Part shown: positions 1,873-58,242 of the stretch, piece by piece
How the letters are laid out: each line of letters starts with the position of its first letter
Numbering within the stretch: position 1 is the first letter of the stretch
Program-made: the position numbers and the translations under genes
The notes under the pieces: generated by a model
Seen by the model: the letters and a program-made list of their open reading frames with translations, nothing else
What the model was told of the DNA's origin: nothing
The model's database searches: none
Assembly: GCA_043747295.1 (NCBI GenBank)
Contig: JAYTPK010000168.1
Span: 9,121-73,120 of the forward strand
DNA from: Polaromonas sp.
GTDB taxonomy: Bacteria > Pseudomonadota > Gammaproteobacteria > Burkholderiales > Burkholderiaceae_C
Direction of reading: 5' to 3'
Length of the DNA: 64,000 bases

Positions 1873-1880
1873 AACGCTCA

Positions 1881-1948
1881 CTATCAAATTAATAGCTGTC
1901 TAAGCAATGAATACTTGGACTACAAAGCTATTTAGCACCTAAAAGCGC
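1881..1948 (-). repeat. dispersed repeat family, copy 1 (intergenic)
   Basis: CTATCAAATTAATAGCTGTCTAAGCAATGAATACTTGGACTACAAAGCTATTTAGCACCTAAAAGCGC matches the reverse complement of the family core. Confidence 0.8.
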
Positions 1949-1958
1949 ACTCAACAGC

Positions 1959-8703: not shown

Positions 8704-8788
8704 TAGTGTTTATAGCTATATGCTACTAATTTCATAGCTGCTTAAGTAGTAAATACTTGGACTACAGCCCATTTAGATAGGTAAAAGG
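8704..8788 (-). repeat. dispersed repeat family, copy 2 (intergenic, with internal partial duplication)
   Basis: ...TTTCATAGCTGCTTAAGTAGTAAATACTTGGACTACAGCCCATTTAGATAGGTAAAAGG. An extra ATAGCTATATGCTAC segment lies at the 5' side. Confidence 0.8.
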
Positions 8789-8815
8789 CTCCTGAACCGT
8801 AGTTCAGGAGCCTTT
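8784..8815. terminator. bidirectional hairpin terminator between convergent genes
   Basis: Perfect 14-bp stem AAAGGCTCCTGAAC / GTTCAGGAGCCTTT with loop CGTA, flanked by A and T runs. Confidence 0.6.
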
Positions 8816-8834
8816 AAACCATCGTAATCAGAGA

Positions 8835-9368: not shown

Positions 9369-9381
9369 GAGAAATTCTCCT

Positions 9382-9642: not shown

Positions 9643-9661
9643 GGTTAATTTTCATGGTTAA
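9636..9661. repeat. 13-nt tandem duplication of a stop/start gene junction
   Basis: TTTTCATGGTTAA occurs twice. On the minus strand this is TTAACCATGAAAA twice. One unit carries the pirin stop and the other carries the DUF2798 ATG. Confidence 0.75.
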
Positions 9662-10545: not shown

Positions 10546-10569
10546 GGCGAGTTTCCTTTGAAACAACGG

Positions 10570-11271: not shown

Positions 11272-11405
11272 GGTGCAGCCTTTCATTGAACAGCTCAGTT
11301 AAAGCAACTCATCACTGTATATGGCTAATATAAAGCCCTTATGTCATCAAATCAATTGCCTTTATTTGTTGATTAGATGCAAATTTTTTGAATATACTGC
11401 GGCTG

Positions 11406-12350: not shown

Positions 12351-12377
12351 GCCTTTGTAAGCTAGGCCTTTGGAGAT
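12348..12377. repeat. 15-nt tandem duplication starting at the LysR stop codon
   Basis: TAGGCCTTTGTAAGC followed by TAGGCCTTTGGAGAT, then TAA. This gives three in-frame stops at 15-nt spacing. Confidence 0.6.
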
Positions 12378-12405
12378 TAAAACTAACCGATGCAATGTGA
12401 GTCAT

Positions 12406-15147: not shown

Positions 15148-15225
15148 AAAGGTCCCTGAACAATAGAGACTCTTTGTAAAGCAAGACTATGACCGAACTA
15201 TGACACGTAAATGTTAAAAATGTAT

Positions 15226-16260: not shown

Positions 16261-17629
16261 AACTGGCCCCTTGTGTTGCAGGTAAAGGTGTCGCGGCATA
16301 TGCAGGGCTACCAGCCTTGCGCGCCATGTGGAACACCACCGACACATACGCCACAAGCAATGCTAAGTACACCGTCAAATACATGGCCAAGGTACCCGCT
16401 AGCATGGGCGTAGGCACCGTGGCTGCGGCCTGCGAGGTGCTTAATATGCCGTAGACCAAATAGGGCTGACGGCCAATCTCGGTCACGTACCAGCCCGCTA
16501 GCGTGGCCACCCAGCCTGCAAACGTCATAGCCACCAGCGCGCGGGCCAGCCAAGGCTTAACCTCGCCTTGTTTTTTAAGCTGCCAAGCGCTTAGCCAGCC
16601 CACAGCCAGCATTAAAAGCCCCATACCCACCATCACCCTGAAGGCCCAAAACACAGGGGCCACTGGCGGGTGCTTGCCTTTGAAATCGTCTAGGCCTTTA
16701 ACCTCGCCGTCCAAGCTGTGGGTTAAATACAAGCTAGCCAGTTTGGGCATTGCGATTTCAAACTTGTTGCTGCGGGTGGCCTCATCGGGCAGTGCAAACA
16801 GCACAGCGCTAGCGCCCTTTTGCGTTTGCCAAATGCCCTCCATCGCAGCCAGCTTGGCGGGCTGGTGCTGTAGCGTGGCCAGGCCATGCAGGTCACCCAG
16901 CACGATCTGTAGGGGCAACACCACCGCCGCCATCACCACGCCCGTGCGCAGGGCCGACAGCACTGCGGGCACGCGGTCACCACGCAGCCAGCGGTAAGCG
17001 CTGATGCCTGCAATGACGAAAGCCACCGTGGCAAAACACGCTGTCATCATGTGGGCAAATTTGTAGGGGAACGAAGGGTTAAAGATAATGGCAAACCAGT
17101 CGGTGGCATACGCCACCATTGCGCCAGTTTGCGGGTCGGGCCGCATCTCAAAACCAGCAGGCGTTTGCATCCAAGAGTTCAGCGCCAATATCCAAAACGC
17201 TGACATGCTGGTGCCAAAAGCTACCAAAAATGTCGCTATGGTATGCACCCGGTTACTGACCCGCTGCATGCCAAACAGCATGATGCCTAAGAAAGTAGCC
17301 TCTAGGAAAAACGCCGTCATCACCTCATAAGCCAACAGGGGCCCAGCGATGTTGCCCACCGTCTTCATAAAGCCCGGCCAATTGGTACCAAACTGAAAAC
17401 TCATGGTGATGCCGCTGACCACACCCAAGGCAAATGTCAACGCAAACACCTTGACCCAAAAGCCGTAAGCGTCCATCCATTTAGCGTCTTTGGTGCTGTT
17501 AAATCGCAGCTTAAAAAACAGCAACACCCAGGCTAGCGCGATGGTGATGGTAGGAAACAAAATATGAAAACTGATGTTGGCTGCAAACTGAATGCGGTGC
17601 AAGATCAGCGGATCAAACGGTTCTGTCAT
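16253..17629 (-). CDS. cydA: cytochrome bd-type ubiquinol oxidase subunit I (short Q-loop, CIO-like)
   Basis: LHRIQFAANISFHILFPTITI and GWYVTEIGRQPY motifs. The 458-aa length implies the short Q-loop class. Confidence 0.9.
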   Translation of the reverse strand: MTEPFDPLILHRIQFAANISFHILFPTITIALAWVLLFFKLRFNSTKDAKWMDAYGFWVKVFALTFALGVVSGITMSFQFGTNWPGFMKTVGNIAGPLLAYEVMTAFFLEATFLGIMLFGMQRVSNRVHTIATFLVAFGTSMSAFWILALNSWMQTPAGFEMRPDPQTGAMVAYATDWFAIIFNPSFPYKFAHMMTACFATVAFVIAGISAYRWLRGDRVPAVLSALRTGVVMAAVVLPLQIVLGDLHGLATLQHQPAKLAAMEGIWQTQKGASAVLFALPDEATRSNKFEIAMPKLASLYLTHSLDGEVKGLDDFKGKHPPVAPVFWAFRVMVGMGLLMLAVGWLSAWQLKKQGEVKPWLARALVAMTFAGWVATLAGWYVTEIGRQPYLVYGILSTSQAAATVPTPMLAGTLAMYLTVYLALLVAYVSVVFHMARKAGSPAYAATPLPATQGASYA

Positions 17630-17650
17630 AGCTGTGCTCCTAAAGAAAAC

Positions 17651-18244
17651 TCAAAACTCTGCTGGCAACTGCAACCCCGTAGGCAATGGCTCTGCCTTAC
17701 GTCCACCCAAGCCCAGTTTTTCTTTGAACTCTAAAAACTTTTGCGCTTTAGCGCCTAGCTTCATCAGCTGGCGCAGCGTGTGCTCGTCTAGTTTTTGCAC
17801 ATCTGCCATCCAATCCGTGACCAGCTCGATCAGCTCATGCATATCGCCCATGCGCTTTTGCGCGAAGACGTCTTGCGGGTTGGTGGGCGCATGCAGCAGT
17901 GCATCGCGCAGCATGGTCAGCGTAGGGTCGATCTCGCGTTTACGCCGCTCGTCAGCCAAGGTCCGAAAAATGGCCCATACGTCCTCGGGTGCCGAGAAGT
18001 ACTCACGCCGATCGCCGGGTAAATGCTGCAGCCGCACCAGCCGCCACGAGTCCAGCTCTTTCAGCCCCATGCTAACGTTAGAGCGCGAGAAAGCTAGCGC
18101 CTCAGCTATCTCGTCTGCGTTAATCGGCTTTTCACTCACAAACAGCAGCGCATAGATTTGCCCCACGGTGCGGTTAATGCCCCAGCGGCTTCCCATCTCG
18201 CCAAAATGCAGAACAAAGCTTTGGGCTAACGGCGTGAGATTCAT
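17651..18244 (-). CDS. GbsR/MarR family transcriptional regulator
   Basis: HFGEMGSRWGINRTVGQIYALLFVSEKPINADEIAEALAFSRSNVSMGLKEL is typical of GbsR-type regulators. It lies upstream of cydAB on the same strand. Confidence 0.85.
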   Translation of the reverse strand: MNLTPLAQSFVLHFGEMGSRWGINRTVGQIYALLFVSEKPINADEIAEALAFSRSNVSMGLKELDSWRLVRLQHLPGDRREYFSAPEDVWAIFRTLADERRKREIDPTLTMLRDALLHAPTNPQDVFAQKRMGDMHELIELVTDWMADVQKLDEHTLRQLMKLGAKAQKFLEFKEKLGLGGRKAEPLPTGLQLPAEF

Positions 18245-18364
18245 GGAATTCCTTGGATTTCAATAATTACTGAAATTATAAGAAACTCAAAGAAATATAC
18301 AAGGGTTATTACTTATTACCTGCGCTGTCAGCAGGTGAATAGCCATGGTTGGGCTCGGTATTTA

Positions 18365-18448
18365 CTATCGATTTCATAGCTGTCTGAGTAATGAATACTT
18401 GGACTAACAGCATATTTTGTTGGTAAAAGTGCCGTTTTAGTGCTTTTT
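18365..18448 (-). repeat. dispersed repeat family, copy 3 (intergenic)
   Basis: CTATCGATTTCATAGCTGTCTGAGTAATGAATACTTGGACTAACAGCATATTTTGTTGGTAAAAGTGCCGTTTTAGTGCTTTTT. Confidence 0.8.
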
Positions 18449-18480
18449 GTGGTTCTTTGTATTGGGACGCGATCTGCTGC

Positions 18481-18541
18481 GGCGTGTGCCTTATGCCAAC
18501 CGGACCTGAGGCCCTTGATTGGTTGTCATAGGGCACACGCC
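18481..18541. other. long near-perfect hairpin in a 585-nt non-coding gap
   Basis: GGCGTGTGCCTTATGCCAACC pairs with GGTTGTCATAGGGCACACGCC (19 of 21 positions) around a 19-nt loop. Confidence 0.5.
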
Positions 18542-18829
18542 ACAGCAAATCGCTTGCACGAGGCTGGGGAACGGCGCGCATGTTTGCAGAGATTTTCTCA
18601 GCGATAGATCCCGCCGCCCGACCAAGGTAAACAACGAACCAATGCATTACCAATGGGTAAGCTCAGCAACAGCAACGCGCTATGAATAACCTCACGCTTC
18701 TTTAAGATCAAAGTGGAATCCTCAGCGCTGCGGGCATGCCGCGATAGGGTACGAGCGTCGTGGTCAGCTTTTGAATATCGGTCAACAGCTCAATGCTCAT
18801 ATGGCCCAAATTGCGTGTAGAGTCGTGGC

Positions 18830-19918
18830 ATGACTTCACGCACACCCCTCCGCCCCAAATCCTCACGCTCTAAAAACATTGCCATCATTGGCGCAGGCTT
18901 AGCCGGCATCACGGCGGCGCGCACACACATGCAGGCGGGCCATCAAGTAACGGTGTTTGAAAAAAGCCGCAGCGTGGGTGGGCGCATGTCTACCCGGCGT
19001 ACTGAGTTTGGTAGCTTTGACCATGGCGCGCAGTACTTTACCGTGCGCGATGCGCGCTTTCGCACTTTGATGCAGTGGGCGCTAGCCACAGCACCTGATG
19101 TAGCCCGCCCATGGGCTGCTAACGCGGTGCGCGTGCTAGACGAAAGCGGCCGCAAAGCTGCAGCTGCCCTACCCACCAGCGAACCTCATTGGGTGGGCCA
19201 ACCGGGCATGAATTCACTGGCCGTGCACTGCGCAGGCCCACTGGCCGATGCTGGCCGACTGATGCTCAATACCCGCATCCACCGCATTACCCACACAGCC
19301 GCTGGCTGGCACCTCAACGCTGTGGACGCCAACGACCTGGACGCTGTTTACGGCGGCTTTGACCAAGTGATATTGGCCCTGCCCAGCATGCAGGCGCGTG
19401 AGATGCTGGTCAACTCTGAGCACCACGAGGCCTGGGCCAGCGCGCTGGCCAAAGTGGTGGTAGCCCCCTGCTGGACGCTCATGCTGGCCTACCCCAGCGC
19501 TGTAACCGTAGCCCCGCGCGCAGCCGCTGTACCCCTTGGTCCCCAGTGGAGCGCAGCGCGCAGCACCCACCACCGCGTAGCCTGGCTGGCACGTGAATCG
19601 TCCAAGCCTGGCCGCGACACCATCGAGCGCTGGACCGTACAAGCCAGCGCCGACTGGAGCCGCGAACACTTAGAAGACGACGCTGCACGCGTGAAAGCCA
19701 AACTACTCAAAGCCTTTGCCGAAATCACCGGCATCCGCGCCGAACCCGACTATGCCGAAGTACACCGCTGGCGCTTTGCTAAAACCGAAACGCCGTTAGG
19801 TAAAAACTACCTGTGGGACGCCAAAACCGGCCTAGGTATCTGCGGCGACTGGTGCATAGGCCACCGCGTTGAAGACGCTTTTATCAGCGGGTTAGAGCTG
19901 GCACTGGCTACTAAATAA
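18830..19918 (+). CDS. NAD(P)/FAD-dependent oxidoreductase (renalase/amine-oxidase-like)
   Basis: Dinucleotide-binding [15 protein letters not shown], then [16 protein letters not shown] and FDHGAQYFT. Confidence 0.8.
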
Positions 19919-19928
19919 AGAACCTGGC

Positions 19929-20954
19929 TTGAGTGCCGCAGTCGAAGTGGCAAGCTTGCGAACCAGTTACGTCGGACGTTTTGCGCCCTCACCTACCGGG
20001 CCACTGCACGCAGGATCGCTGGTAGCGGCGCTGGCCAGCTGGCTTGATGCGCGTGCGCATGGCGGCCGCTGGCTAGTACGCATCGAAGACGTTGACACCC
20101 CCCGCTGCGTGCCCGGTGCTGACCACAATATGCTGCAGCAGCTAGCGCAGTGCGGTTTGGTCCCCGATGAGCCACCGGTGTACCAGTCGCAGCGCGGAGT
20201 ACATTACCAGGCCGCCCTAGACACTCTGAAACTGGCGCAATATGCCTACCCCTGCACTTGCTCGCGCAGTGATATTGAAGCCGTGTGGCAAGCCAGGGGC
20301 TTAGCCAAACCGCGCCATGGCGAGCTGATCTACCCGGGCACTTGTCGTCACAGTGCTGCGGCTGTTGATAACCTGCAACGTAGCCCTGCTTGGCGTTTTA
20401 AAACTGACTTTTCACAACAAAATCAGCCTGTAGTCCAAGTATCTGCTACTCAAGCAGCTATTAAAGATATAGCAAGCACACTTCAACCTTGCGCCGCAAT
20501 TGTAGATTGGACAGATCGCCGCTTGGGCCCGCAAACGCAATCGGTGGCCACCGCAGTGGGTGACTTTGTACTGCGCCGCGCTGACAGCCTGTGGGCGTAT
20601 CAGCTGGCTGTGGTGGTAGACGATGCGCTGCAAGGCGTTACCCACGTGGTGCGAGGTGAAGATTTAGCCGACAACACCGCACGGCAAATCTTGCTGCAGC
20701 ATGCGCTGGGCTACCCCACACCGCGGTACCTGCACACGCCACTGCAACTGGCAGCGGATGGACAAAAATTGTCTAAACAAAATGGTGCTCAGGCACTTCA
20801 ACTTGGCAGCACAGAGGCAGCGTCCAGCGCTTTAATACAGGCTGCAAAAGCACTAAAACTTAATCCAAATGGATACAGTTATGCCAATAAATCAAACTAT
20901 CTGGGACAATTGTTGCCTAATTTGTTGACACAATGGAAAACCATCTACTACTAA
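19929..20954 (+). CDS. gluQ: tRNA glutamyl-Q(34) synthetase
   Basis: [51 protein letters not shown] and KLSKQN match GluQRS. TTG start is uncertain. It carries an in-frame repeat-derived insert. Confidence 0.9.
20398..20477 (+). repeat. dispersed repeat family, copy 4, translated in frame inside gluQ
   Basis: AAAACTGACTTTTCACAACAAAATCAGCCTGTAGTCCAAGTATCTGCTACTCAAGCAGCTATTAAAGATATAGCAAGC encodes [26 protein letters not shown]. Confidence 0.75.
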
Positions 20955-21010
20955 AGTGAACACAACATTACAATGCTGGCACTGCCTAAGCAGTTATTTA
21001 AAACAGCCAA

Positions 21011-23497
21011 ATGAAACTACAACGCCGTCTAAGTCATCTACTCATTGTTTTTTTAGTAACAGGTGCACTATGGTCGACCTCAGCTTTTGCACAAACCTGC
21101 GCAGCACCAGGCAAAAACGGTCCCTGCAACGCTCTAACCGGCGTAGTTAACAGCTACCACGCAGGAGCAGCCGACACCACTGTGTCGGCTGGCGCTAGTC
21201 AAATCACACTAGCCTCTATTACGGGCCAACGAACTAGCAACCGCGCCTTGGAGATTGGCGACCAAGTGATAGTCATGCAAATGCAAGACTCTACAACGCC
21301 AGCCAATGCAGGCTTGCATGAATATGCCACGGTAATTGGCATTGCAGGAAACGTCATTACTTTAAACCGGGCTCTAACTAACGCCTATGCGCAGCAAGTC
21401 AACACCACGCCAACAGTGCGTACCTTTCAGGTGATCTACGTGCCCCAATGCTCCACGGCCACCATTGCGGCAGCCAGCACAGTGTCGGCAGACCGCTGGG
21501 ACATCAACGCCACAACGGGTGCAGGTACAGGTGGTGTCGTGGGCATCGACGTAGCGGGTAGTTTGGCGATTAACGGCACAATCACTGTAGCTGGAGCGGG
21601 TTTTCGCGGTGGGCCAGGCCGCAACGGCACAGGCAACCGCACAGGCGGGCTTTTCAGCGATGCTAACTATGCCTATGACTTAGCTGCCCCTAACGGTGCC
21701 ATCAAAGGTGAAGGTACTGGCGGCACGCCTTTACAGGTGTTCAATGGTACGGTAACCCCAGTCAGTTACGCAGCACTTATTGCCCAGGGGTACACCGCAG
21801 GATCAGGCGGTCAAGGCTCTATTGGCAATGCAGGAGGTGGCGGTAATGATGGCACCCCTGCGACAGGCAGCAACCAATTTAACAGCGGCGGCGGTGGCGG
21901 TGGTAATGGCGGCACGGGTGGCAAGGGCGGCTTTAGCTGGTCCGCGAGCAACGATGCTGGGGGTCGCGGAGGCAGTGTGGTCACAAACAACGCAACCCGT
22001 TTAGTACTGGGCGGCGGCGGCGGTGCTGGTAGCACTAACAACAACGGAAATGCAGATGCCATTACAGCATGGCCCCCCATAGTTAGCACAACCACGCGGC
22101 CGCTACCCACTGCAACGGGCACGGCCAACGGAGCCGACGGCCCCATCAGCTCCAGCGGTGCGTCCGGCGGAGGTGTGGTGTTGATACGTGCTGGCACACT
22201 GGCAGCTAGCACAGGCCGCGTGATTGCCGATGGTTATACGGCGCACAATAATTCTGGTGGCTCCGAGGCGGCTGGTGGTGGCGGTGCAGGCGGTAGTATT
22301 TTTATTAGCGCATTAAGCGGCAATGGCGCTGGCTTAACCCTGAGCGCTTCCGGTGGCGGCGGTGGCTACTCTAACTATTATGACCACGGGCCCGGCGGCG
22401 GCGGCGGCGGCGGCTATGTTGAAACTTCATTAAGCGCAGCGACTATTGCCGTGCTGGGTGGTACCAATGGCTACGACGGCTGTTGTGCAGGAGGAGCAGG
22501 CAACGGTAGTCCCAAAACCTACAACGCTGCACCAGGCGTGGGTGCAGTTAGCCTATTTCCGACAGGTATACCTACAGGTAACAGCGCTGGCGCGCAGTGT
22601 TTACCTGTTTTAACGGTGACTAAATCTACCACCACGCCTGTTCTTACACTGCCTAGCCAAACTACGGCCCAATATTTGATCACGGTGCGCAACGCGACGA
22701 CAGCGGGCACAGCTTACGGTGTGGCTCTGTCCGACGCATTGCCAGTACCCTTTGGCCTGCAAACGGTAACCCAATTGGGCACTACGACCATAAGCGGCAC
22801 GAGCACCACGGGCCCGAGCCCCACTACCCCAAACCAATCGGGCAGCACGCCCACTGCGGTGTTTGGTGTAGCAGGCAGTGCCAATAACCCCGCCACACCG
22901 TCGTTCACCATAGCACCCGGGGGTTCGGTCACATTGACTTTTATTGTCAACGTCAACACCACTACGCTAGCAACCTTTCAAAACAGCGCCAGCGCCACCT
23001 TTACCGATCCCACCCGCACCACGGGCGGCCCGGCCATAGGCTCAGCCACCATCAACCCAGCGGTATCCCCTGGCGGTACCTTCGCCAGTGGCGCAGCGGT
23101 GGGTGGCACTAACTACGCCAGCGGTTCATCTGCGGTAGATGACGTGCGGCTAGTAGCAACCACCACTCTCACAGTCACCAAAACAGACGGTACCGCCACG
23201 CTGATAGCTGGCAGCACCACAGCCTACACCGTGACCTTCAGCAACACAGGCGGTTTTGCGGCCAATAACGCCATCATTAAAGACATCCCTAGTGCAGGCC
23301 TTACCTGCACCACGGTGACCTGCGTTTCCACCACGGGCAGCGCCAGTTGCCCAGTAGGCCTTACATTGGGTACACCCACACCTGTGGCTAGCGTACCTAA
23401 TTTATTTAATACTACAGGCATCGCTATCACCACTTTCCCACCAGCCAGCAGTGTTAATTTAGTGGTGAGCTGCAATGTGACGGCCACTGGCCAATAA
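21011..23497 (+). CDS. secreted glycine-rich repeat protein with C-terminal DUF11-type repeat domains
   Basis: Signal peptide ends in SAFAQ. Central poly-Gly blocks (SGGGGGGNGGTGGKGG, GPGGGGGGGY). Two LTVTK... DUF11-like modules. No enzymatic motif recognised. Confidence 0.7.
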   Translation: MKLQRRLSHLLIVFLVTGALWSTSAFAQTCAAPGKNGPCNALTGVVNSYHAGAADTTVSAGASQITLASITGQRTSNRALEIGDQVIVMQMQDSTTPANAGLHEYATVIGIAGNVITLNRALTNAYAQQVNTTPTVRTFQVIYVPQCSTATIAAASTVSADRWDINATTGAGTGGVVGIDVAGSLAINGTITVAGAGFRGGPGRNGTGNRTGGLFSDANYAYDLAAPNGAIKGEGTGGTPLQVFNGTVTPVSYAALIAQGYTAGSGGQGSIGNAGGGGNDGTPATGSNQFNSGGGGGGNGGTGGKGGFSWSASNDAGGRGGSVVTNNATRLVLGGGGGAGSTNNNGNADAITAWPPIVSTTTRPLPTATGTANGADGPISSSGASGGGVVLIRAGTLAASTGRVIADGYTAHNNSGGSEAAGGGGAGGSIFISALSGNGAGLTLSASGGGGGYSNYYDHGPGGGGGGGYVETSLSAATIAVLGGTNGYDGCCAGGAGNGSPKTYNAAPGVGAVSLFPTGIPTGNSAGAQCLPVLTVTKSTTTPVLTLPSQTTAQYLITVRNATTAGTAYGVALSDALPVPFGLQTVTQLGTTTISGTSTTGPSPTTPNQSGSTPTAVFGVAGSANNPATPSFTIAPGGSVTLTFIVNVNTTTLATFQNSASATFTDPTRTTGGPAIGSATINPAVSPGGTFASGAAVGGTNYASGSSAVDDVRLVATTTLTVTKTDGTATLIAGSTTAYTVTFSNTGGFAANNAIIKDIPSAGLTCTTVTCVSTTGSASCPVGLTLGTPTPVASVPNLFNTTGIAITTFPPASSVNLVVSCNVTATGQ

Positions 23498-23577
23498 AAC
23501 ACGCCTCTGCAACACGATAGCGCTTGGCTAACCAAGCCAGCCAGCGCGTGCTCTGTGCCCTCTACAATCGAGGGCGT

Positions 23578-24399
23578 ATGAGCGATATTTCTCCCCTTCC
23601 CCCAGCCACTGTACCTGCAGCAGCAGACACCGCAGTACCCACCACCCCGCATCCCAAAGCCCGCCCCATTCGCAGCTTTGTGCTGCGCACCGGCCGCACC
23701 ACCGTAGGCCAAGCCAAAGCACTGGAGGATTTGGGCCCTCAATATTTGCTGCCGTATCAATCAAACGCTATAGATTTAATAGCTGTACAAGCAGTAAATA
23801 CTTGGACTACTGGCCAAAATGCTACTCAAACCATCCTAGAAATCGGTTTTGGCATGGGCGAAGCCACAGCACACATTGCCAAGCTGCTGCCGCAAGCTTT
23901 GTACTTGGCCTGTGAGGTGCATCCACCCGGTGTGGGCGCGTTGCTCAAGCGTATTGGTGATGAAGGCATTGGCAATATTCGCATCATTCAGCACGATGCC
24001 GTGCAAGTGCTAGAGCACATGCTGGCGCCAGACAGCCTAGACGCAGTGCACATTTTCTTCCCCGACCCTTGGCATAAAAAACGCCACAATAAACGCCGCT
24101 TGATCCAAGCGCCCTTGGTCAAATTGCTAGCCTCACGCATTAAGCCTGGCGGCTATATCCACTGCGCTACCGACTGGGAAAACTACGCCGAGCAAATCTT
24201 GCAAGTGCTGACCGATGAGCCGCTGCTCTCCAACACGGTGCCCGGCACACCAGCCACTGGCACCGCACCTGCTACTGGCTATGCACCCAAGCCGGATTAC
24301 CGACCGCTGACGAAATTTGAAAACAGGGGTATTAAGCTAGGCCACGGAGTATGGGATCTGGTGTTTAGACGCAACATGGCGCACAGTTCAGGTGCATAG
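23578..24399 (+). CDS. trmB: tRNA (guanine-N7)-methyltransferase
   Basis: ILEIGFGMGEATAHIA, FFPDPWHKKRHNKRRL and ATDWENYAE are TrmB motifs. ATG at 23578 within ORF 23524..24399. Confidence 0.9.
   Translation: MSDISPLPPATVPAAADTAVPTTPHPKARPIRSFVLRTGRTTVGQAKALEDLGPQYLLPYQSNAIDLIAVQAVNTWTTGQNATQTILEIGFGMGEATAHIAKLLPQALYLACEVHPPGVGALLKRIGDEGIGNIRIIQHDAVQVLEHMLAPDSLDAVHIFFPDPWHKKRHNKRRLIQAPLVKLLASRIKPGGYIHCATDWENYAEQILQVLTDEPLLSNTVPGTPATGTAPATGYAPKPDYRPLTKFENRGIKLGHGVWDLVFRRNMAHSSGA
23768..23827 (-). repeat. dispersed repeat family, copy 5, translated in frame inside trmB
   Basis: CTATAGATTTAATAGCTGTACAAGCAGTAAATACTTGGACTACTGGCCAAAATGCTACTC encodes AIDLIAVQAVNTWTTGQNAT. Confidence 0.75.
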
Positions 24400-25773: not shown

Positions 25774-25851
25774 AAAAAGTAGCACTTTTACCCATCATAT
25801 TGGCCTATAGTCCAAGTATTTATTGCTTATATAGCTATGCAATTAATAGCG
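25774..25851 (+). repeat. dispersed repeat family, copy 6 (abuts the alaS stop)
   Basis: AAAAAGTAGCACTTTTACCCATCATATTGGCCTATAGTCCAAGTATTTATTGCTTATATAGCTATGCAATTAATAGC. Confidence 0.85.
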
Positions 25852-25853
25852 CA

Positions 25854-28529
25854 TTAAATACGCTCGGTGACCCACGCTTGCACACTGGCCAGCGCCGCAG
25901 CCAGCTTGGCGGGCTCTGTGCCGCCGGCCATGGCCATGTCGGGCTTGCCGCCACCTTTGCCGCCCACTTGGCTGGCTACAAAATTGGCCAAATCACCAGC
26001 TTTCACTTTGCCAATGGTGTCAGCCGTTACGCCCGCAGCAATTTGCACTTTGTCGCCGTCCACGGCGGCCAAAACGATCACAGCGGTTTTCAGCTTGTCT
26101 TTCAGCTTGTCCATCGTGTCGCGCAGGGTTTTGGCCGCGTCAGCCCCCGAACCTACGCCCTCCAGCTTCACAGCCACCAGCTTGATGCCTTTGATGTCTG
26201 CAGCCCCTTCAGACAGCGAGTCGCCTTGGCTTGACGCCAGCTTGCCTTTGGCAGCGGACAGTTCTTTCTCCAGCGCCTTCATGTCAGCCTGCATTTGCGC
26301 AATGCGTGCTGACAGCTCGGCAGGCTGGGTTTTCAGGGCTGCGGCGGCGGTATTGACCGTGGCTTCTAGATTTTGCACGTACTCCACAGCGCCAATGCCG
26401 GTCACCGCTTCAATGCGGCGCACACCAGCGGCCACGCCGCTTTCGGCCACGATTTTGAACAGGCCAATATCACCCGTGCGCTGCACATGCGTACCGCCGC
26501 ACAGCTCTTTGGACGAGCCAATCGACAGCACACGCACCTCGTCGCCGTACTTCTCGCCAAACAGCATCATCGCGCCGGTTTTCTTAGCCTCTTCAATCGG
26601 CATGACCTGCGCGCTGGTGACCGCGTTGGCCAAAATTTCGGCGTTGACTTGGGTTTCAATTGCCACAATCTGCGCATCAGTCACTGGCGCATTGTGTGTA
26701 AAGTCAAAACGCGTGCGGTCTGCGGTCACCAAGCTGCCTTTTTGCTGCACATGGCTGCCTAACACTTCACTCAGGGCCTTGTGCATCAAATGGGTGGCGC
26801 TGTGGTTACGCACGGTGCGGTTACGCGCCTCGGCGTTAACCTTGGCCTTGATAGCATCGCCCACTTTGATGGTGCCACTGTGCATCTCGCCATGGTGGCC
26901 AAACACATCGGTTTTGATCTTTTGCGTGTCTAGTGCGGCAAAAATAGCGTCGCCCGTGCCAAATAGCAGGCCCTCGTCACCTGCTTGGCCGCCGCTTTCG
27001 GCATAAAACGGTGTCACATCTAACACCACAACACCTTGTTGACCTTTTGTAAGCTGCTGCACGGGTGCGCCATCGGCATATAAAGCCACCACTTTTGCCG
27101 CGCCCTCTAGCGTGGTGTATCCCGTAAATGTATTGGATTGGCCAGCGTAGTCTAGCGCTTTGTCCATCTTGAACTTGCCTGCAGCGCGGGCTTGGTTTTT
27201 TTGCTTTTCCATGGCGATGTTAAAGCCAGCTTCGTCCACACTCAGGTCACGCTCGCGGCATACGTCAGCGCTCAGGTCGAGCGGAAAACCATAGGTGTCG
27301 TGCAGCTTGAAAGCTACATCGCCCGGCAAGGTTTGCACTTTGGCTTTACCCGTGGCTGCGTCGTAGCCCAAAGCAGAATCTAAAATCTCCATGCCAGTGG
27401 CTAGCGTTTCAAAAAACCGCTCTTCTTCAACTTTTAAAACATCCATCACCCGCGCAGCGTCGCTCTTCAAACGCGGATACGCATCGCCCATCATGCGCAC
27501 CAGGTCGGGCACCAGCTTGTGGAAAAACGGAGTCTTTTTGCCCAGCTTGTAGCCGTGGCGAATGGCGCGGCGGATGATGCGGCGCTGCACGTAGCCGCGC
27601 CCTTCGTTGCTAGGCACCACGCCGTCGCTGACCAAAAACGCGGTAGCGCGGATGTGGTCTGCAATCACGCGCAGGCTTTTGTTGTTCAGGTCGGTCACGC
27701 CGGTTTCGCGGCCAGCGGCTTTGATCAGCTGGTCAAAAATGTCGATTTCGTAGTTGCTGTGAACATGTTGAAGAATGGCGGCAAGGCGCTCTAGGCCCAT
27801 ACCGGTATCAACGCAAGGCGCGGGCAGTTTGTTCAGCGAGCCATCGCTCTGCATGTCAAACTGCATGAACACGTGGTTCCAAATCTCGATAAAACGGTCG
27901 CCATCCTCACCCGGGCTGCCCGGTGGGCCACCGGGGATGTGCGGGCCGTGGTCATAAAAAATCTCGCTGCACGGGCCGCACGGCCCGGTGTCTGCCATCA
28001 TCCAAAAGTTATCGGACGCGTATTTTTTGCCTTTGTTGTCGCCAATGCGGATCACACGCTCTGGTGGCAGACCGATTTCTTTAGTCCAAATGTCATAAGC
28101 TTCGTCGTCGTCAATGTAAATCGTGGCCGTCAGCTTCTCAGGCGGCAGCTTGTAAACCTGGGTCAACAGCTCCCAGCCCCATTTGAGTGAGTCGCGCTTA
28201 AAGTAGTCACCAAAGCTCCAGTTGCCCAACATCTCAAAAAACGTGTGGTGGCGTGCGGTGTAGCCTACATTTTCTAGGTCGTTGTGTTTGCCGCCTGCGC
28301 GCAGGCAGGCCTGTACGCTGGCTGCGCGCACATACGAGCGCTTGTCAGCGCCCAAAAACACGTCTTTAAACTGCACCATGCCGCTGTTGGTAAACATCAG
28401 CGTGGGGTCGTTGCCAGGCACCAGTGGGCTGGATTCGACCACGGTATGGCCTTTGGTGGCGTAAAAATCGAGAAAAGACTTGCGAATGTCTGCGACGGAG
28501 AATTTGGGGGAAGAGCTAGCTTGTGTCAT
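25854..28529 (-). CDS. alaS: alanine--tRNA ligase
   Basis: [35 protein letters not shown] and the editing and C-Ala domains are present. 891 aa. Confidence 0.97.
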
Positions 28530-35346: not shown

Positions 35347-36360
35347 TTATTGCGCGGTGATGCCTGCCGTTTTGATCACGCGGGTCCAGCGATCTTTTTC
35401 AGATTTGACAAACGCGCTGTAAGCCGCAGCACCCAAAGTGGGCACCACAAAACCTGTGGACTCTAGGCGCTGCTTGAGTTCAGCACTTTGAATGGCTTTG
35501 ACCATTTCAGCCTCCAGCTTGTCAACAATCGCTTTAGGGGTACCTTTGGGCAGCGACATGCCTGACCACGACAGCGCAGAAAAACCGGGGTAGCCAGACT
35601 CACTGACGGTGGGTACATCAGGGTACAGCGGGTTGCGCTGCGCGCTAGATACCGCCAGCGCGCGCAGTTTGCCCGCTTTAACGTGCTGCAAAGCGACGTC
35701 TTGGTTGATGAACATCATGGGGATTTGGCCGCCCAGCAGGTCGGTCATCATCGGGCCGCCGCCACGGTACGGTATGCCCACCATGAACAGACCTTTGCAA
35801 TCGGTTTTACCAGCTGGGCAGGCTGACACGGTTTGCTTGAGTAACTCCATCGCCATGTGGCCAGACGCTGCATGGGTGTAGCCGTAATTGAGCTTGCCTG
35901 GGTTGGCCTTGCCGTAGTCCACCAGTTCTTGCAGTGTTTTAAACGGCTGGCTGGGGTGCACCACCAGCACGTTAGGCCCTGAGTTAACTTGCGTGAGGTG
36001 GATAAAGTCGTTGTTAGAGTCGTACTTTAAATTGGCATCCAGCCCATGGGCTACGGCGTTTTGCCCTACCCCAGTTTGCACGATGGTGTAACCATCAGCG
36101 TTGGCCTTGGAGCCGCGCTCTGTGCCAATCACGCCACCTGCACCGCCCACGTTTTCAACCACAAAGGGCTGCTTCATCGACTTGGTCAACGCGTCGGCCA
36201 TCATGCGGGCCATCACATCGCTGGTGCCACCTGGCGGAAAAGGTACGATCACTTTAACGGCTTTAGTGGGGTAGTCAGCCTGCGCCAGTGCCACGCCAGA
36301 CACTATAAAAAGCATAGCTGCTTGAGCAATAAATACTTGGACTACACGGTTATTTAGCAT
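35347..36360 (-). CDS. Bug/TctC family tripartite tricarboxylate transporter substrate-binding protein
   Basis: Mature start DYPTKAVKVIVPFPPGGTSDV is the Bug-family hallmark. The N-terminal 16-20 codons lie inside a repeat copy. Confidence 0.88.
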   Translation of the reverse strand: MLNNRVVQVFIAQAAMLFIVSGVALAQADYPTKAVKVIVPFPPGGTSDVMARMMADALTKSMKQPFVVENVGGAGGVIGTERGSKANADGYTIVQTGVGQNAVAHGLDANLKYDSNNDFIHLTQVNSGPNVLVVHPSQPFKTLQELVDYGKANPGKLNYGYTHAASGHMAMELLKQTVSACPAGKTDCKGLFMVGIPYRGGGPMMTDLLGGQIPMMFINQDVALQHVKAGKLRALAVSSAQRNPLYPDVPTVSESGYPGFSALSWSGMSLPKGTPKAIVDKLEAEMVKAIQSAELKQRLESTGFVVPTLGAAAYSAFVKSEKDRWTRVIKTAGITAQ

Positions 36361-36372
36361 ATAAAGCCTTCA
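36303..36372 (-). repeat. dispersed repeat family, copy 7, supplies the start codon and signal-peptide N-region of tctC
   Basis: CTATAAAAAGCATAGCTGCTTGAGCAATAAATACTTGGACTACACGGTTATTTAGCATATAAAGCC. On the minus strand it reads MLNNRVVQVFIAQAAMLFIV. Confidence 0.8.
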
Positions 36373-36412
36373 TTAAATGGATAGAAATTTACGGGATAGT
36401 CTGCAAACTTTT

Positions 36413-41611: not shown

Positions 41612-41700
41612 CCAGTAAAAGCACTAAAACATCACTTTTATCAATGAAATATGCTTGTAGTCCAAGCATTTACTACTTAGACAGCTATGAAATTAATAGC
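41612..41700 (+). repeat. dispersed repeat family, copy 8, supplies the last codons and stop of ispF
   Basis: CAGTAAAAGCACTAAAACATCACTTTTATCAATGAAATATGCTTGTAGTCCAAGCATTTACTACTTAGACAGCTATGAAATTAATAGCAC. The ispF stop (CTA at 41685-87) lies in the CAGCTATGAAATT core. Confidence 0.8.
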
Positions 41701-42167
41701 ACTGCAGCTCTAGCCTCGATGCTCAAGCCCTCACCTACCGGCCCCATCTTCTCTGCAGTTTTAGCCTTTACATTCACTTGCGATACCGCCACCCCCAATG
41801 CAGCAGCAATACGCTCGCACATCGCCGGAATGTGCGTTGCCAGCTTAGGAGCCTGCGCGATGATGGTGCTGTCGACGTTGCCAATTTGGTAGCCTGCAGC
41901 CCGCACGCGCCGTGCGGCTTCAGTCAGCAAAGCAATTGAATCTGCACCTTTAAACTGCGCATCCGTATCAGGAAAGTGACGGCCAATATCACCCAAGGCC
42001 GCTGCACCCAGCAGTGCGTCGGTGATGGCGTGCAACAGCGCGTCAGCGTCTGAATGGCCTAGCAAACCTTTGTCGAAAGGGATGTGCACGCCGCCCAGTA
42101 TCAGCTTGCGACCAGGTACCAAGGCATGGGTGTCCCAGCCTTCGCCAATTCGAAATGGTGTGTTCAT
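41685..42167 (-). CDS. ispF: 2-C-methyl-D-erythritol 2,4-cyclodiphosphate synthase
   Basis: [26 protein letters not shown] and [19 protein letters not shown] are IspF motifs. Confidence 0.95.
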
Positions 42168-46813: not shown

Positions 46814-47196
46814 ACAGCAACATTTTGATTTGTTGGCTCAAAGGACAAGGCAAAGTAACCCAGCAGCTGCAAAGCAAGTCGCCCCAGCACATCAAGATAC
46901 CAGCACCTGCTTTGTTTGAGCTGGAATAAGGCACTGCCAAATCACTAAAGCCGCAGCTACAACGTGAATTTATCGATGCGCTGGTGCTAAAGCTTGAAGT
47001 ACTTCCGCTGGACTACCCCAGCGCCGAAGCCGCTGGCTTATTGCGTAGCTCACTAGAAAGTAAAGGCAATTTGATAGGCTCCTACGATTTATTAATCGCA
47101 GGCATCGCCATAGCCCACAACCTGACAGCCATTACCCGCAACACCCGCGAGTTTGCACGCGTACCCGGCCTACGTGTAGAAAACTGGTACGACTGA
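46801..47196 (+). pseudogene. vapC: PIN-domain toxin VapC interrupted by one in-frame TAA at codon 43
   Basis: MYLLDSNILICWLKG...PAPALFELE-TAA(46927-29)-GTAKS...DLLIAGIAIAHNLTAITRNTREFARVPGLRVENW. Both halves are in one frame. The stop sits where VapC proteins have Tyr (ELEYGA). Confidence 0.8.
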
Positions 47197-47198
47197 GT

Positions 47199-47263
47199 CA
47201 TTTAGGTGCCAAATATGCCCGTAGTCCATGTATTCATTGCTCGAACAGCTATTAAATTGATAG
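47199..47263 (+). repeat. dispersed repeat family, copy 9 (intergenic)
   Basis: CATTTAGGTGCCAAATATGCCCGTAGTCCATGTATTCATTGCTCGAACAGCTATTAAATTGATAG. Confidence 0.75.
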
Positions 47264-47299
47264 AATCTAGCAAGCCATTAGAGGATCGAGCAGAGCAAC

Positions 47300-49435: not shown

Positions 49436-50149
49436 ATGTCTGCACACGAATACTCTCCCGGATTAGTTATTCAAAACTTTACTGCGCCATTGCAGTTAGC
49501 CCACTTTAAGTTGGCAGCATTTGATATGGACTCCACGCTGATTAACATCGAGTGCGTTGACGAGATAGCCGATGCAGCGGGTCGTAAAGCAGAAGTTGCG
49601 GCCATCACCGAGGCGGCCATGCGCGGCGAGATTACCGACTACAAAGACAGCCTGCGCCGCCGTGTAGCGCTGCTTAAAGGCGTTCCTGTTAGTGCGATGG
49701 AGCAGGTATACACGCAGCGCTTGCAGCTTAACCCTGGCGCACAGGTGTTGACGCAAGCTTTTAAAGCTGCGGGCATGAAGCTGCTTTTAGTGTCGGGTGG
49801 TTTCACGTTTTTTACGGATCGTATTCGTGATCGATTGCAGATCGACTGGGCGCGCTCTAACGTGCTGGAGATAGCCGATGGCCTACTGACAGGCCGCATG
49901 GTAGACCAGCCTTGGGGTGATATTTGTGACGGCGAACAAAAGCGCCTGACGCTGCTTCAGACATGCGCTGCCATGGGCATTGATGCATCGCAAACCATCG
50001 CAGTGGGTGATGGCGCAAACGATTTGCCCATGATGGGTGCGGCAGGTTTGTCAGTAGCCTTTCACGCTAAACCTGCAGTGCGTGCCAAAGCGATGGTGTC
50101 TATCAACACGGGTGGTTTAGACCGTGTTTTAGGGCTATTTACCAGCTAA
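49436..50149 (+). CDS. serB: phosphoserine phosphatase
   Basis: HAD motifs FDMDSTLI, LVSGGF and GDGANDLPM. ATG at 49436 within ORF 49367..50149. Confidence 0.88.
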   Translation: MSAHEYSPGLVIQNFTAPLQLAHFKLAAFDMDSTLINIECVDEIADAAGRKAEVAAITEAAMRGEITDYKDSLRRRVALLKGVPVSAMEQVYTQRLQLNPGAQVLTQAFKAAGMKLLLVSGGFTFFTDRIRDRLQIDWARSNVLEIADGLLTGRMVDQPWGDICDGEQKRLTLLQTCAAMGIDASQTIAVGDGANDLPMMGAAGLSVAFHAKPAVRAKAMVSINTGGLDRVLGLFTS

Positions 50150-50200
50150 ATCAGCCTGTAGTCCAAGTATTTATTACTTATATAGCTATTAAATTGATAG
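50140..50200 (+). repeat. dispersed repeat family, copy 10 (overlaps the serB stop)
   Basis: CCAGCTAAATCAGCCTGTAGTCCAAGTATTTATTACTTATATAGCTATTAAATTGATAG. Confidence 0.85.
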
Positions 50201-50207
50201 TGAAGCA

Positions 50208-52107: not shown

Positions 52108-53964
52108 ATGAGTGACATACCTGTTTATCGCGACTTTACTTTTGGCGTGACTCGCGCAGTGAAAACTGAGCGCGGAGGAAACACTTATTTGTCAGCCGAG
52201 CAGGCTTTGCAGGCTTATCCAGAACGCCTCACTGATCGCCTGCAGCACTGGGCGCACACCGCGCCTGAGCGCACTTGGATGGCGCGGCGCGATAGCACGG
52301 GCGTTTGGGTAAAAATCAGTTATGCCCAAGCTTGGGACAAAGCGCAGCGCATAGGCCAAGCCCTGCTTAATCGCGGGTTGGGCGTCGATAAACCCGTGGC
52401 CATCTTGAGCGAAAACAGCCTAGAACATGCCCTGTTGGCCATTGGCTGCATGACCGTGGGCGTGCCGTATTGCAGCGTATCCACTGCCTACAGCTTAATG
52501 AGCCAAGACTATGAAAAGCTGCGCCATGTACTGAGCACCATCACCCCGGGTTTGGTGTACGCCAGCGATTGGGCGCGCTACGGCAAAGCTATTGACGCTG
52601 TGCTGGGTGCTGACGTGGAAGTTGCTACAAATACCATAGCTACCCGAGCAATAAATACGTGGACTACCACCCTATTTGATGCACTTTTAAGCACAAATAC
52701 CACGCCCGCAGTCGCAGAGGCCATGCAGGCCACTGGCGGCGACACGATAGTGAAGTTTTTGTTCACCAGCGGCTCTACCAAGCTGCCCAAAGGCGTGGTC
52801 AACACCCAGCGCATGATTTGCGCTAACCAGCAGCAGATGGCGCAGTCCAAACCCAGCGTGTTTGACATTCCGCCCGTGCTGGTGGACTGGCCGCCCTGGA
52901 ACCACACCTTCGGCGGCAACCATGATTTCAACCTCGTGCTGTTCCATGGCGGCACGCTGTACATCAACGACGGCAAGCCCACGCCAGCTTTGATTGGCGA
53001 GACCATTCGCAACCTCACCGAGATTGCGCCCACGGTGTATTACGACGTACCGATTGGCTTTGAATATCTCGCCAACGCGATGAAGACTAACGCCGCGCTA
53101 CGTAAAAATTTACTCTCCAACCTGCGCATGTTTTTCTACGCGGGCGCAGCGCTGGCGCAGCCTATTTGGGACTCGCTGTATGAAACCCAAGAAAAAGAGC
53201 TGGGCTACCGCATTCCCATGACCACTGGCCTGGGCATGACCGAGAGCGCGCCGTTTGGCTTGTTTGTTACCAACACGCAAGTCAAGGCGGGCGACCTGGG
53301 CCTGCCCACGCCGGGCCTGGAGCTCAAGCTAGTGCCCAGTGGCGACAAATTGGAGGTGCGCTACCGTGGCCCTAACGTCACGCCCGGCTACTGGAAAAAC
53401 GAAGCCGCAACCCAAGAAAGTTTTGACGAAGAAGGCTTTTTTTGCACTGGCGATGCGGTCAAATGGATTGACGAGGCGGACATTCACCAAGGCCTGAAAT
53501 TTGATGGCCGCATAGCTGAAGACTTTAAGCTGTCCACCGGCACCTTCGTCAGCGTAGGGCCGCTGCGCGCCAAGGTCATTGCCGCTGGTGCGCCGCTGAT
53601 TCAAGATGTGGTGATTACTGGGCTGAATGAAAAAGAAGTCGGCGCGCTGATTATCTTAGCGCTAGGCCCCGCTAAAAAGTTTGCTGGCTTACCTGACAGC
53701 GCCACGATGAAACAAGTGGCTGAGCACGCCTGTATCCAACAAGCCATGGCAAACATGCTGACCACATTAGCCACTACTGCCACAGGTTCATCCAGCCGCA
53801 TTGCCCGCGCGGTGGTACTGACCGAGCCACCCCAGATCGACAAAGGTGAGATCACCGACAAAGGCAGCATCAACCAGCGCGCTGTGCTGACTGCTCGCGC
53901 TGCCTTGGTGCAAGCGCTGTATGCGGATACTGCGCCTCATTTGATCAAGCCTTCCCATGCTTGA
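52108..53964 (+). CDS. AMP-dependent acyl-CoA synthetase (feruloyl-CoA synthase-like)
   Basis: AMP-binding motif FLFTSGSTKLPKGV, plus GLGMTE and GDAVKWID. The overall layout resembles proteins annotated as feruloyl-CoA synthase. Confidence 0.8.
   Translation: MSDIPVYRDFTFGVTRAVKTERGGNTYLSAEQALQAYPERLTDRLQHWAHTAPERTWMARRDSTGVWVKISYAQAWDKAQRIGQALLNRGLGVDKPVAILSENSLEHALLAIGCMTVGVPYCSVSTAYSLMSQDYEKLRHVLSTITPGLVYASDWARYGKAIDAVLGADVEVATNTIATRAINTWTTTLFDALLSTNTTPAVAEAMQATGGDTIVKFLFTSGSTKLPKGVVNTQRMICANQQQMAQSKPSVFDIPPVLVDWPPWNHTFGGNHDFNLVLFHGGTLYINDGKPTPALIGETIRNLTEIAPTVYYDVPIGFEYLANAMKTNAALRKNLLSNLRMFFYAGAALAQPIWDSLYETQEKELGYRIPMTTGLGMTESAPFGLFVTNTQVKAGDLGLPTPGLELKLVPSGDKLEVRYRGPNVTPGYWKNEAATQESFDEEGFFCTGDAVKWIDEADIHQGLKFDGRIAEDFKLSTGTFVSVGPLRAKVIAAGAPLIQDVVITGLNEKEVGALIILALGPAKKFAGLPDSATMKQVAEHACIQQAMANMLTTLATTATGSSSRIARAVVLTEPPQIDKGEITDKGSINQRAVLTARAALVQALYADTAPHLIKPSHA
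52625..52692 (-). repeat. dispersed repeat family, copy 11, translated in frame inside the acyl-CoA synthetase gene
   Basis: CTACAAATACCATAGCTACCCGAGCAATAAATACGTGGACTACCACCCTATTTGATGCACTTTTAAGC encodes ATNTIATRAINTWTTTLFDALLS. Confidence 0.65.
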
Positions 53965-58149: not shown

Positions 58150-58216
58150 TGCTTTTTCCAATCGAATAGCCTTGCAGTCCAAGTATTCATTACTTAAGCA
58201 GCTATCAAATTTATAG
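58150..58216 (+). repeat. dispersed repeat family, copy 12 (intergenic)
   Basis: ...GAATAGCCTTGCAGTCCAAGTATTCATTACTTAAGCAGCTATCAAATTTATAG. Confidence 0.8.
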
Positions 58217-58242
58217 TAAATTAACTTTAGAAAGACTCTGCC

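Follow-up and report, generated by a model that had tools for sequence, protein, structure and literature searches.

The gluQ gene and its in-frame repeat copy

The window analyzed here is a stretch of 64,000 nucleotides from Polaromonas sp. (GenBank assembly GCA_043747295.1, contig JAYTPK010000168.1, positions 9,121 to 73,120). The feature at issue is a copy of a short dispersed repeat that lies within gluQ, the gene for the tRNA glutamyl-Q34 synthetase GluQRS, and is translated as part of the protein. The gene, the repeat copy, and the two modules of that copy are located as follows, in window coordinates.

19929..20954, plus strand: gluQ (tRNA glutamyl-Q34 synthetase, GluQRS), an intact open reading frame (ORF) of 341 amino acids, assigned by NCBIfam, PDB, and fold matches
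20407..20475, plus strand: repeat copy read in frame within gluQ, codons 160-183 (nhmmer, 42.4 bits, E=2.9e-12; GC 0.41)
20430..20455, plus strand: hairpin-1 module of the gluQ copy, a GTAG tag (20430-20433) followed by the imperfect palindrome TCCAAGTA-TCTGC-TACTCAAG, genome-specific, from sequence and copy alignment
20456..20474, plus strand: hairpin-2 module of the gluQ copy, AGCTAT-TAAAGAT-ATAGCA, encoding A-I-K-D-I-A, with nucleotides conserved in the orthologues of other genera

The protein is classified as GluQRS by the NCBIfam equivalog NF004313 (412.1 bits; cutoff, 380) and by TIGR03838 (365 bits; cutoff, 276.7). It comprises the catalytic domain without the C-terminal anticodon-binding domain, and the GluRS model TIGR00464 covers it only over profile positions 5-251 of 470. 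The closest PDB entries by sequence are those of Escherichia coli YadB/GluQRS (1nzj and 4a91), and 4a91 is also the top fold match of an AlphaFold model (TM score of 0.82, normalized to the target). Residues H27, G29, S30, K280-L-S-K-Q, C109, C111, Y135, and C139 are invariant in a 97-sequence GluQRS alignment; we take the C109/C111/Y135/C139 set (Cys-x-Cys ... Tyr-x3-Cys) to be the zinc ligands and H27-G29-S30 and K280-L-S-K-Q to be the class-I signature motifs. The window protein shares enzyme family, fold, conserved zinc ligands, and class-I motifs with its E. coli counterpart. Its nearest relative, P0001 (95% identical), derives from an ENA metagenome; named relatives are at most 70% identical, and the top orthologue in a scan of a species-level genome collection only 67%. 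GluQRS is a dispensable tRNA-modification enzyme in E. coli, and the phrase "essential-pathway" in the sequence-only reading that preceded this analysis was an overstatement.

As a separate observation, the 3' end of gluQ (20800-20954, the C-terminal ~50 codons) and the following spacer (20955-21050) are AT-rich, with a GC content of 0.34-0.41. The encoded tail is conserved solely in the closest relatives, P0001-P0003, and other orthologues end differently. This tail may be another recently acquired or replaced segment.

The repeat is present in the window in 12 clear copies and one weak match, distributed over both strands, with the consensus CTTTTAnCnAnnAAATAnGCCTGTAGTCCAAGTATTTATTGCTTAnACAGCTATnAAATTnATAGCA. 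A unit of ~67 nt consists of an A/T-rich left arm (CTTTTA..AAAT.GCC), a GTAG-tagged imperfect palindrome (hairpin 1), and a second hairpin, AGCTAT-N7-ATAGC (hairpin 2). The copy within gluQ begins one base into codon 160 (GAC, 20406-20408) and runs for ~69 bases at a GC content of 0.41, compared with ~0.57-0.67 elsewhere in the gene. At 42 bits, against 56-67 for the other clear copies in the window, it has diverged furthest, and it shows 6 mismatches in a 32-nt core. Chance similarity is excluded, because an nhmmer profile built from the 11 window copies outside gluQ, with the gluQ copy itself left out, recovers the segment at E=2.9e-12 (envelope, 20398-20479).

The sequence-only reading had placed a repeat copy in frame at 20398-20477 and described an ORF that reads straight through it. 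Both points are borne out: the ORF is intact over 341 amino acids, its peptide is exactly as quoted, and read-through of the copy in frame is confirmed at the level of the genomic sequence. An artefact, either a chance resemblance or a gluQ gene decaying into a pseudogene, would find nothing in its favor except that the segment and the C-terminal tail are low in GC. Set against the E value, a full-length ORF above the equivalog cutoff, the invariant motifs, and purifying selection on the gluQ core (ratio of nonsynonymous to synonymous differences per site, pN/pS, of ~0.1-0.25), it retains a negligible probability.

The window protein aligns without gaps to E. coli residues 4-111, and the difference follows directly after this stretch: E. 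coli residues 111-139 face residues 119-191 of the window protein, that is, 28 residues against 72, and the alignment resumes from window residue 191. The residues reported earlier as lacking an E. coli counterpart are therefore indeed extra, and E. coli GluQRS is without the repeat-derived loop. The AlphaFold model, built on the 97-sequence alignment (mean pLDDT, 82.9; pTM, 0.83), gives residues 164-186 a pLDDT below 50, flanked by confident strands at 154-157 (AWRF) and 191-196 (IVDWTD). In this model the repeat segment is a low-confidence, flexible loop between two strands. Of the "surface loop" proposed from the sequence, the model supports the loop.

Distribution of the insert among gluQ orthologues

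Eighty orthologous gluQ loci, designated by L numbers, were recovered from the genome collection. In many of them, including those of Ramlibacter, Curvibacter, Hydrogenophaga, Variovorax, Rubrivivax, and Roseateles, there is no insert and the segment from AWRF to W.DRR measures 16-25 residues (54-72 nt); it measures 45 residues in the window and 39 in a number of other genes. The excess over these insert-less Comamonadaceae orthologues, 21-27 codons, agrees with the length of the repeat unit. A homologous insert, at the same offset from WRF and in the same orientation and frame, is found in orthologues with 60-80% protein identity from Polaromonas (L001-L003 and L011), Acidovorax (L008, L010, and L066), Rhodoferax-like metagenome-assembled genomes (MAGs; L019, L023, L007, and L006), and the clade of the window (L081-L087). 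The orthologue alignment therefore identifies the insert as neither recent nor private to this genome. In most insert-bearing orthologues of Polaromonas, Acidovorax, and the Rhodoferax-like group, the segment has a constant length of 117 nt.

The insert-bearing orthologues keep hairpin 2, AGCTAT-N7-ATAGC, with ATA (Ile) and GCT (Ala), codons that are unusual for such GC-rich genomes. The peptide thus travels with the nucleotides of the repeat, and orthologues carrying the same peptide without them, which would have spoken against a repeat origin, were not encountered. A long AWRF-W.DRR segment also occurs in 89 of the 91 parsable closest homologues from a database of 5.8 billion proteins, a figure biased toward insert carriers because the query itself contains the insert.

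Two further groups of genes are consistent with an insert that was present long ago and then decayed, leaving relics. In L005, L038, L052, L056, and L067 the segment is long but lacks the hairpin, and its GC at third codon positions (GC3) is near the gene average; ameliorated long segments occur in Comamonas, Paracidovorax, and Variovorax W6. Truncated remnants are recognizable in L026, which has TCA ATC GCC (compare TCA ATA GCG), and in L047, which has CCAAACGCGCC (compare CCAAATCAGCC).

Presence of the repeat family does not guarantee an insert in gluQ, because the Burkholderiaceae MAG L032 has window-like repeat copies at 2045 (plus strand) and 6376 (minus strand) and a gluQ loop that is short, at 17 residues, and free of the insert. 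Iterated nhmmer searches with the repeat reached 45 hits, which did not include the Acidovorax and some Polaromonas variants.

Constraint on the nucleotides of the insert

The proportions of synonymous (pS) and nonsynonymous (pN) differences were compared over seven gluQ genes of the window's clade.

gluQ core: pS 0.27-0.68 (at least 0.48 in all pairs except window-L081); pN 0.02-0.16
Insert, within the window's clade: pS 0.00-0.28; pN 0.04-0.32
Insert, compared with L086: pS 0.31-0.47; pN 0.28-0.39

Synonymous sites of the insert are several-fold (3-5x) more conserved than those of the gluQ core, a deficit that is significant in a pooled binomial test (p=2e-8) and in the L084-L085 pair alone (p=6e-7). 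Nonsynonymous sites behave in the opposite way and are less conserved than in the core: when the window-L081 pair is excluded, insert pN ranges over all pairs from 0.12 to 0.39, compared with 0.06-0.16 in the core, and insert pN/pS is ~1 or higher. Constraint acts on the nucleotides and not on the peptide, because pN of the insert is about equal to or above its pS while its synonymous sites are conserved. Codon composition follows the same division, with a GC3 of 0.14-0.50 in the segment of all hairpin-bearing orthologues and of 0.51-0.88 in the rest of the same genes. Judged by these substitution patterns, the insert behaves as a constrained or homogenized nucleotide element that merely must stay open, and not as a selected peptide. 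The spacer at 18156-18829, aligned with L085 and L084, is uninformative as a control for neutral divergence, being ~95% conserved between the window and L085.

These values bear directly on the possibility that the ~22-residue peptide was exapted, having gained a role in GluQRS such as binding of the tRNA-Asp anticodon loop or regulation. It could be argued that the insert persists across genera, including the long segments of 89 of 91 parsed close homologues, that a weak motif, N-x-P...A-Q-A-A-x-x-x-I-A, recurs, and that the insert lies in the zinc-bearing insertion subdomain, which in GluRS contacts tRNA. Yet hairpin 2 and the conserved left arm dictate precisely the residues that recur, and peptide differences between lineages track the repeat variants, as when I gives way to P at a GCTCCT of the repeat. 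A selected peptide is likewise disfavored by the pN/pS of the insert, which is ~1 or above (core, 0.1-0.25), by the predicted disorder of the region, and by E. coli and the many orthologues that do without the insert. We therefore regard exaptation as very improbable. The sequence-only reading had left the choice between "tolerated" and "exapted" open; the first term agrees with synonymous sites that are 3- to 5-fold more conserved than those of the core and with the less conserved nonsynonymous sites, and the second does not.

Matching of the gluQ copy to its own genome

Hairpin 1, the GTAG tag and imperfect palindrome in the middle of the element, differs between genomes and is uniform within each. 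The variants are as follows.

Window's clade: GTAGTCCAAGTA..TRCTTA
L086: CTAGCCCAAG..TGCACAG
L007: CCAGCCCTTGT.AATACTGCTCAAG
L002: GCCCATGTCSGGCATGGG
L008 (Acidovorax): AGCGCTTG..AAGCGC
L011: ATGCGCAAGCAGCTCCT

The gluQ copy bears the hairpin-1 variant of its own genome in all six lineages. Across the 37-nt hairpin-1 region, its mean identity to the intergenic copies of its own genome is 0.74-0.86, which is the best column in each of the six rows, and in a permutation test the observed sum of own-genome identities is reached by only 1 of 720 permutations, the identity permutation. At the columns that separate the L084-type from the L086-type consensus, the gluQ copy of L084 agrees with its own type by 8 to 1 and that of L086 by 8 to 0. 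The own-genome match of hairpin 1 in six lineages points to concerted evolution of the gluQ copies with the other copies of their genomes. The encoded loop changes accordingly with the repeat variant, reading PVVQV, PLAQQ, or PPALV, and AAI becomes AAP where the local repeat has GCTCCT. The hairpin-2 loop AAAAAYA is common to the gluQ copies of L081, L084, and L086 and is not found in their intergenic copies (the window gluQ copy has AAAGATA).

A working nucleic-acid element, maintained by direct selection as a binding site for a GTAG-hairpin factor or as an mRNA structure and yielding the peptide as a by-product, would also account for much of this. Such an element would explain the deficit of synonymous changes without an effect of codon position, the low GC3 retained across genera, and the genome-specific co-variation of hairpin 1 at the fixed gluQ locus and at the trmB locus described below, as predicted by co-evolution with a trans-acting factor. 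In several copies, C.A mismatches of the plus strand correspond to G.U pairs when the opposite strand is read, which hints at a role of the family as RNA. On the other side, Rfam, searched at gathering and at permissive thresholds, holds no family for the repeat and returns only spurious miRNA-type matches on unrelated hairpins, and a promoter and terminator scan of positions 1-20000 shows no enrichment at the repeat, with one weak terminator-like match on a copy. The family has no known function, no other clear copy in the window has diverged as far as that in gluQ, and many lineages that retain gluQ have lost or degraded the copy. Direct selection on the gluQ copy as a nucleic-acid element is thus unlikely, though it should be kept in mind.

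In-frame copies in trmB and an AMP-binding enzyme gene

Two other genes of the window carry a copy in frame, in both cases in reverse orientation.

23763..23832, minus strand: repeat copy in the trmB-like ORF 23524-24399 (plus strand; tRNA m7G methyltransferase), reverse orientation, in frame, amino acids 80-103, SNAIDLIAVQAVNTWTTGQNATQT
52620..52683, minus strand: repeat copy (55.7 bits) in the ORF 52108-53964 (plus strand) of an AMP-binding enzyme (acyl/aryl-CoA ligase-like), in frame, amino acids 171-192, EVATNTIATRAINTWTTTLFDA

The trmB copy follows a conserved N-terminal stretch (IRSFVLRTGRTTVGQ) and precedes the Methyltransf_4 domain. L081 and L086 have orthologous copies, and L084 has a partial one. 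When the window is compared with L086, the flanks and hairpin 2 of this copy are identical at 36 of 40 positions and hairpin 1 at 14 of 28 (Fisher p=5e-4), and each hairpin 1 is 82-85% identical to the intergenic consensus of its own genome. Vertical inheritance of the locus together with in situ replacement of one module is directly visible in trmB. In situ replacement therefore occurs in this repeat family, because hairpin 1 of trmB has been swapped with the flanks and hairpin 2 inherited.

The copy in the AMP-binding enzyme lies within the AMP-binding domain, in the loop preceding the TSGST motif, which is ~12 residues longer than, and gapped against, the corresponding region of 4gxr. It shares with the trmB copy a single reverse frame, A-I/T-x-x-I-A...NTWTT. 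Six of 12 window copies are open in the frame that gluQ uses, more than in any other frame. A weak, degraded match at 40219-40279 (minus strand; 18 bits, E=1e-4) lies in a 304-amino-acid ORF (39746-40660, minus strand) that runs in the same direction; it could be what is left of an old in-frame copy.

Origin and maintenance of the gluQ copy

Taken with the orthologue data, these observations suggest that the gluQ insert is a resident repeat copy that entered in frame once and long ago, was tolerated, has been inherited vertically, and has had its hairpin 1 homogenized by copy-to-copy transfer; we consider this account probable, with some reserve. A ~67-nt repeat of the Comamonadaceae would have entered gluQ in an open frame, at a length-variable loop between two β-strands in the zinc-bearing insertion subdomain of GluQRS. 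The copy would then have been translated as a flexible loop of ~22 residues, neutral for the enzyme, and passed on vertically, to be ameliorated, truncated, or lost in some lineages. Where the repeat family persists, sequence transfer, by gene conversion or by element-mediated replacement, would keep hairpin 1 like the other copies of the genome, and the loop amino acids would follow the local repeat variant because of this transfer between copies.

It is also conceivable, as a tentative and more specific proposal, that a targeted process rewrites only the GTAG-hairpin module of fixed copies, including the translated ones of gluQ and trmB, with flanks and hairpin 2 inherited vertically. If so, copy-to-copy transfer, whether by REP-transposase-mediated replacement (REP, repetitive extragenic palindrome) or by short-tract conversion, works inside coding DNA and drives amino acid change in enzyme loops. 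In-frame REPs would then be live members of the repeat population and not fossils.

Several points weigh against a single, old, homogenized copy. Flank identity from one gluQ orthologue to another is 0.68-0.70, no higher than identity to the consensus. The own-versus-other test restricted to the three closest genomes is not significant (p=0.075), and the comparison draws on ~20 kb per foreign genome, with repeat consensuses resting on 1-4 copies. In a neighbor-joining tree, insert-bearing genes fall into at least three clusters interspersed with insert-less genes; this is a weakly resolved tree of a single gene, computed from the protein minus the insert region. Because the insert-bearing genes are scattered over it, a single origin needs several losses.

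The same clusters could reflect recurrent, independent insertions of each lineage's repeat variant at one gluQ site, in which case similarity to the own genome would mark recent arrival. The match of each gluQ copy to its own genome and the weak locus-specific signal of gluQ outside hairpin 1 fit such a history. Recurrence is harder to reconcile with an identical WRF offset, orientation, and frame, and with the constant 117 nt across genera. The relics seen in related genes, degraded or truncated, suggest that the insert has long been there, the trmB copy demonstrates a hairpin-1 swap in situ with vertically inherited flanks and hairpin 2 (36/40), and the gluQ copies of L081, L084, and L086 have in common the loop AAAAAYA, which their intergenic copies lack. 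Recurrent insertion is, on balance, decidedly unlikely. A single old insertion followed by losses is favored by the shared position, orientation, frame, and length of 117 nt, by the relics, and by the precedent of trmB.

The repeat family and its relation to known elements

The nine remaining clear copies of the window occupy spacers or the ends of ORFs, and in several cases the flanking ORFs are convergent.

1878..1950, minus strand: intergenic copy between convergent ORFs (65.8 bits)
8718..8790, minus strand: intergenic copy between convergent ORFs (63.1 bits)
18360..18435, minus strand: intergenic copy upstream of the amine-oxidase-like gene that precedes gluQ (profile match; orthologous copy in L085)
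25778..25854, plus strand: intergenic copy (64.8 bits)
36298..36373, minus strand: copy at or overlapping the 5' end of a tctC-like ORF (profile match)
41631..41703, plus strand: copy overlapping the 3' end of an ispF-like ORF (YgbB family; profile match)
47193..47268, plus strand: intergenic copy (66.8 bits)
50135..50204, plus strand: intergenic copy between convergent ORFs (profile match)
58150..58221, plus strand: intergenic copy (61.6 bits)

The tag is GTAG in 10 of the 13 window copies and ATAG, TTAG, or GCAG in the others. It is followed by TCCAAGTA-N5-TRCTTAGA, an 8-bp stem with one or two C.A positions (G.U on the opposite strand); the L086 variant has a weaker palindrome. RNAalifold over all copies keeps only hairpin 2, and hairpin 1 is seen only in single-sequence folds, with a poor stem in L086.

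By palindrome, tag, copy number, placement, and the C.A positions of its stems, the family as deduced from its copies agrees with GTAG-tagged REPs as they have been defined in print (Di Nocera et al. 2013, PMC3733652). GTAG REPs likewise consist of an imperfect palindrome of 20-40 nt tagged by GTAG, in high copy number and located mostly between convergent or unidirectional ORFs, with a translated, intragenic minority. The elements described here differ in that the unit is larger, at ~67 nt, and also includes a conserved left arm and hairpin 2, and all window copies are singletons and not inverted dimers. Intragenic GTAG REPs are known in tRNA synthetase and tRNA pseudouridine synthase genes, GTAG and CGTC REPs wholly inside ORFs are listed for several species, and different REPs occupy about the same site in recB of two Xanthomonas species (PMC3733652). 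That study does not include Comamonadaceae, and the persistence of an in-frame copy across genera and its own-genome matching are quantified only here.

A similar comparison can be made with REPIN/RAYT systems, which share genome-specific GTAG hairpin variants, homogeneity within a genome, and long vertical persistence. A REPIN is, unlike the present copies, an inverted doublet of REPs, and there is none among the 13 window copies, all of which are isolated, with nearest neighbors ~2 kb apart.

Rickettsia palindromic elements (RPE; PMC10969869) offer a further parallel, being dispersed palindromic repeats found in frame in unrelated housekeeping genes, compatible with the protein fold and with several genic copies. 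Occurrence of one family in several unrelated genes, which characterizes RPE, is also seen here in gluQ (plus orientation) and in trmB and the AMP-binding enzyme gene (minus orientation, same frame). RPE are ~150 bp and encode a conserved peptide of their own, whereas the present repeat measures ~67 nt, is translated in two different frames and orientations, and lacks constraint at the peptide level. There is no sequence relationship between the two, and the host here is a free-living betaproteobacterium.

The beta-proteobacterial repeat element (BRE; Hot et al. 2011, PMC3110155) is reported from Bordetella, Polaromonas, Rhodoferax, Acidovorax, and Delftia and is mostly intergenic, with some copies entirely within coding sequences. 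Identity with BRE is unlikely by description: BRE are 75-91 bp long, have ~69% GC in Bordetella, and are often tandem (resembling variable number tandem repeats), compared with single copies of ~67 nt and 33-54% GC here. The insert-containing gluQ segments have a GC content of 0.33-0.54, and no tandem arrays occur in the window.

Two further assignments were considered and rejected. The repeat is not a miniature inverted-repeat transposable element, as its ends (CTTTTA... and ...ATAGCA) are not mutual inverted repeats and inspection of the 13-copy alignment reveals no flanking duplication. Nor is the gluQ copy the master of the dispersed repeats, being the most divergent copy, and both old loci, gluQ and trmB, carry the genome-specific variant.

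In-frame palindromic repeats in housekeeping genes are therefore already known, and the basic phenomenon is not new. Translated REP-type repeats in such genes are documented but have rarely been dated or analyzed for selection; what is added here is a different repeat family and host clade, the old age of the in-frame copy, its synonymous-site signature, and statistics for own-genome matching. The gluQ copy could serve as a natural system for studying how REP-like families stay homogeneous, by conversion or by transposase-mediated replacement, and whether this homogenization reaches into coding DNA. It also bears on the share of apparent protein evolution in surface loops that arises as a side effect of repeat dynamics. 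In annotation, the loop sequences of Comamonadaceae GluQRS and TrmB should not be taken for functional adaptations.

Other observations in the window

The copies at 18365-18469 and 41595-41699 share a similarity of 105 nt (84%) that extends ~35 nt past the usual left end (CAAAGAACCA..AAAAAGCACTAAAAC), which suggests a longer sub-family or a composite element. Adjoining the copy upstream of the amine-oxidase-like gene, at ~18455-18555, is a conserved, hairpin-forming, non-coding block (GCGGCGTGTGCCYTATGCCAACCGGACCTG.GGCCCTTGATTGGTTGTCATAGGGCACACGCCAC). This block is near-identical in L084 and L085, while synonymous sites of the neighboring genes are near saturation, and Rfam returns only spurious miRNA matches (18470-18553); the block may be a structured RNA of a kind not yet described, or a site bound by a protein. 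A long inverted repeat at 60727-60913 has 44-nt arms (91% complementary) set 99 nt apart, with sub-threshold, spurious Rfam matches of the miRNA and snoRNA type.

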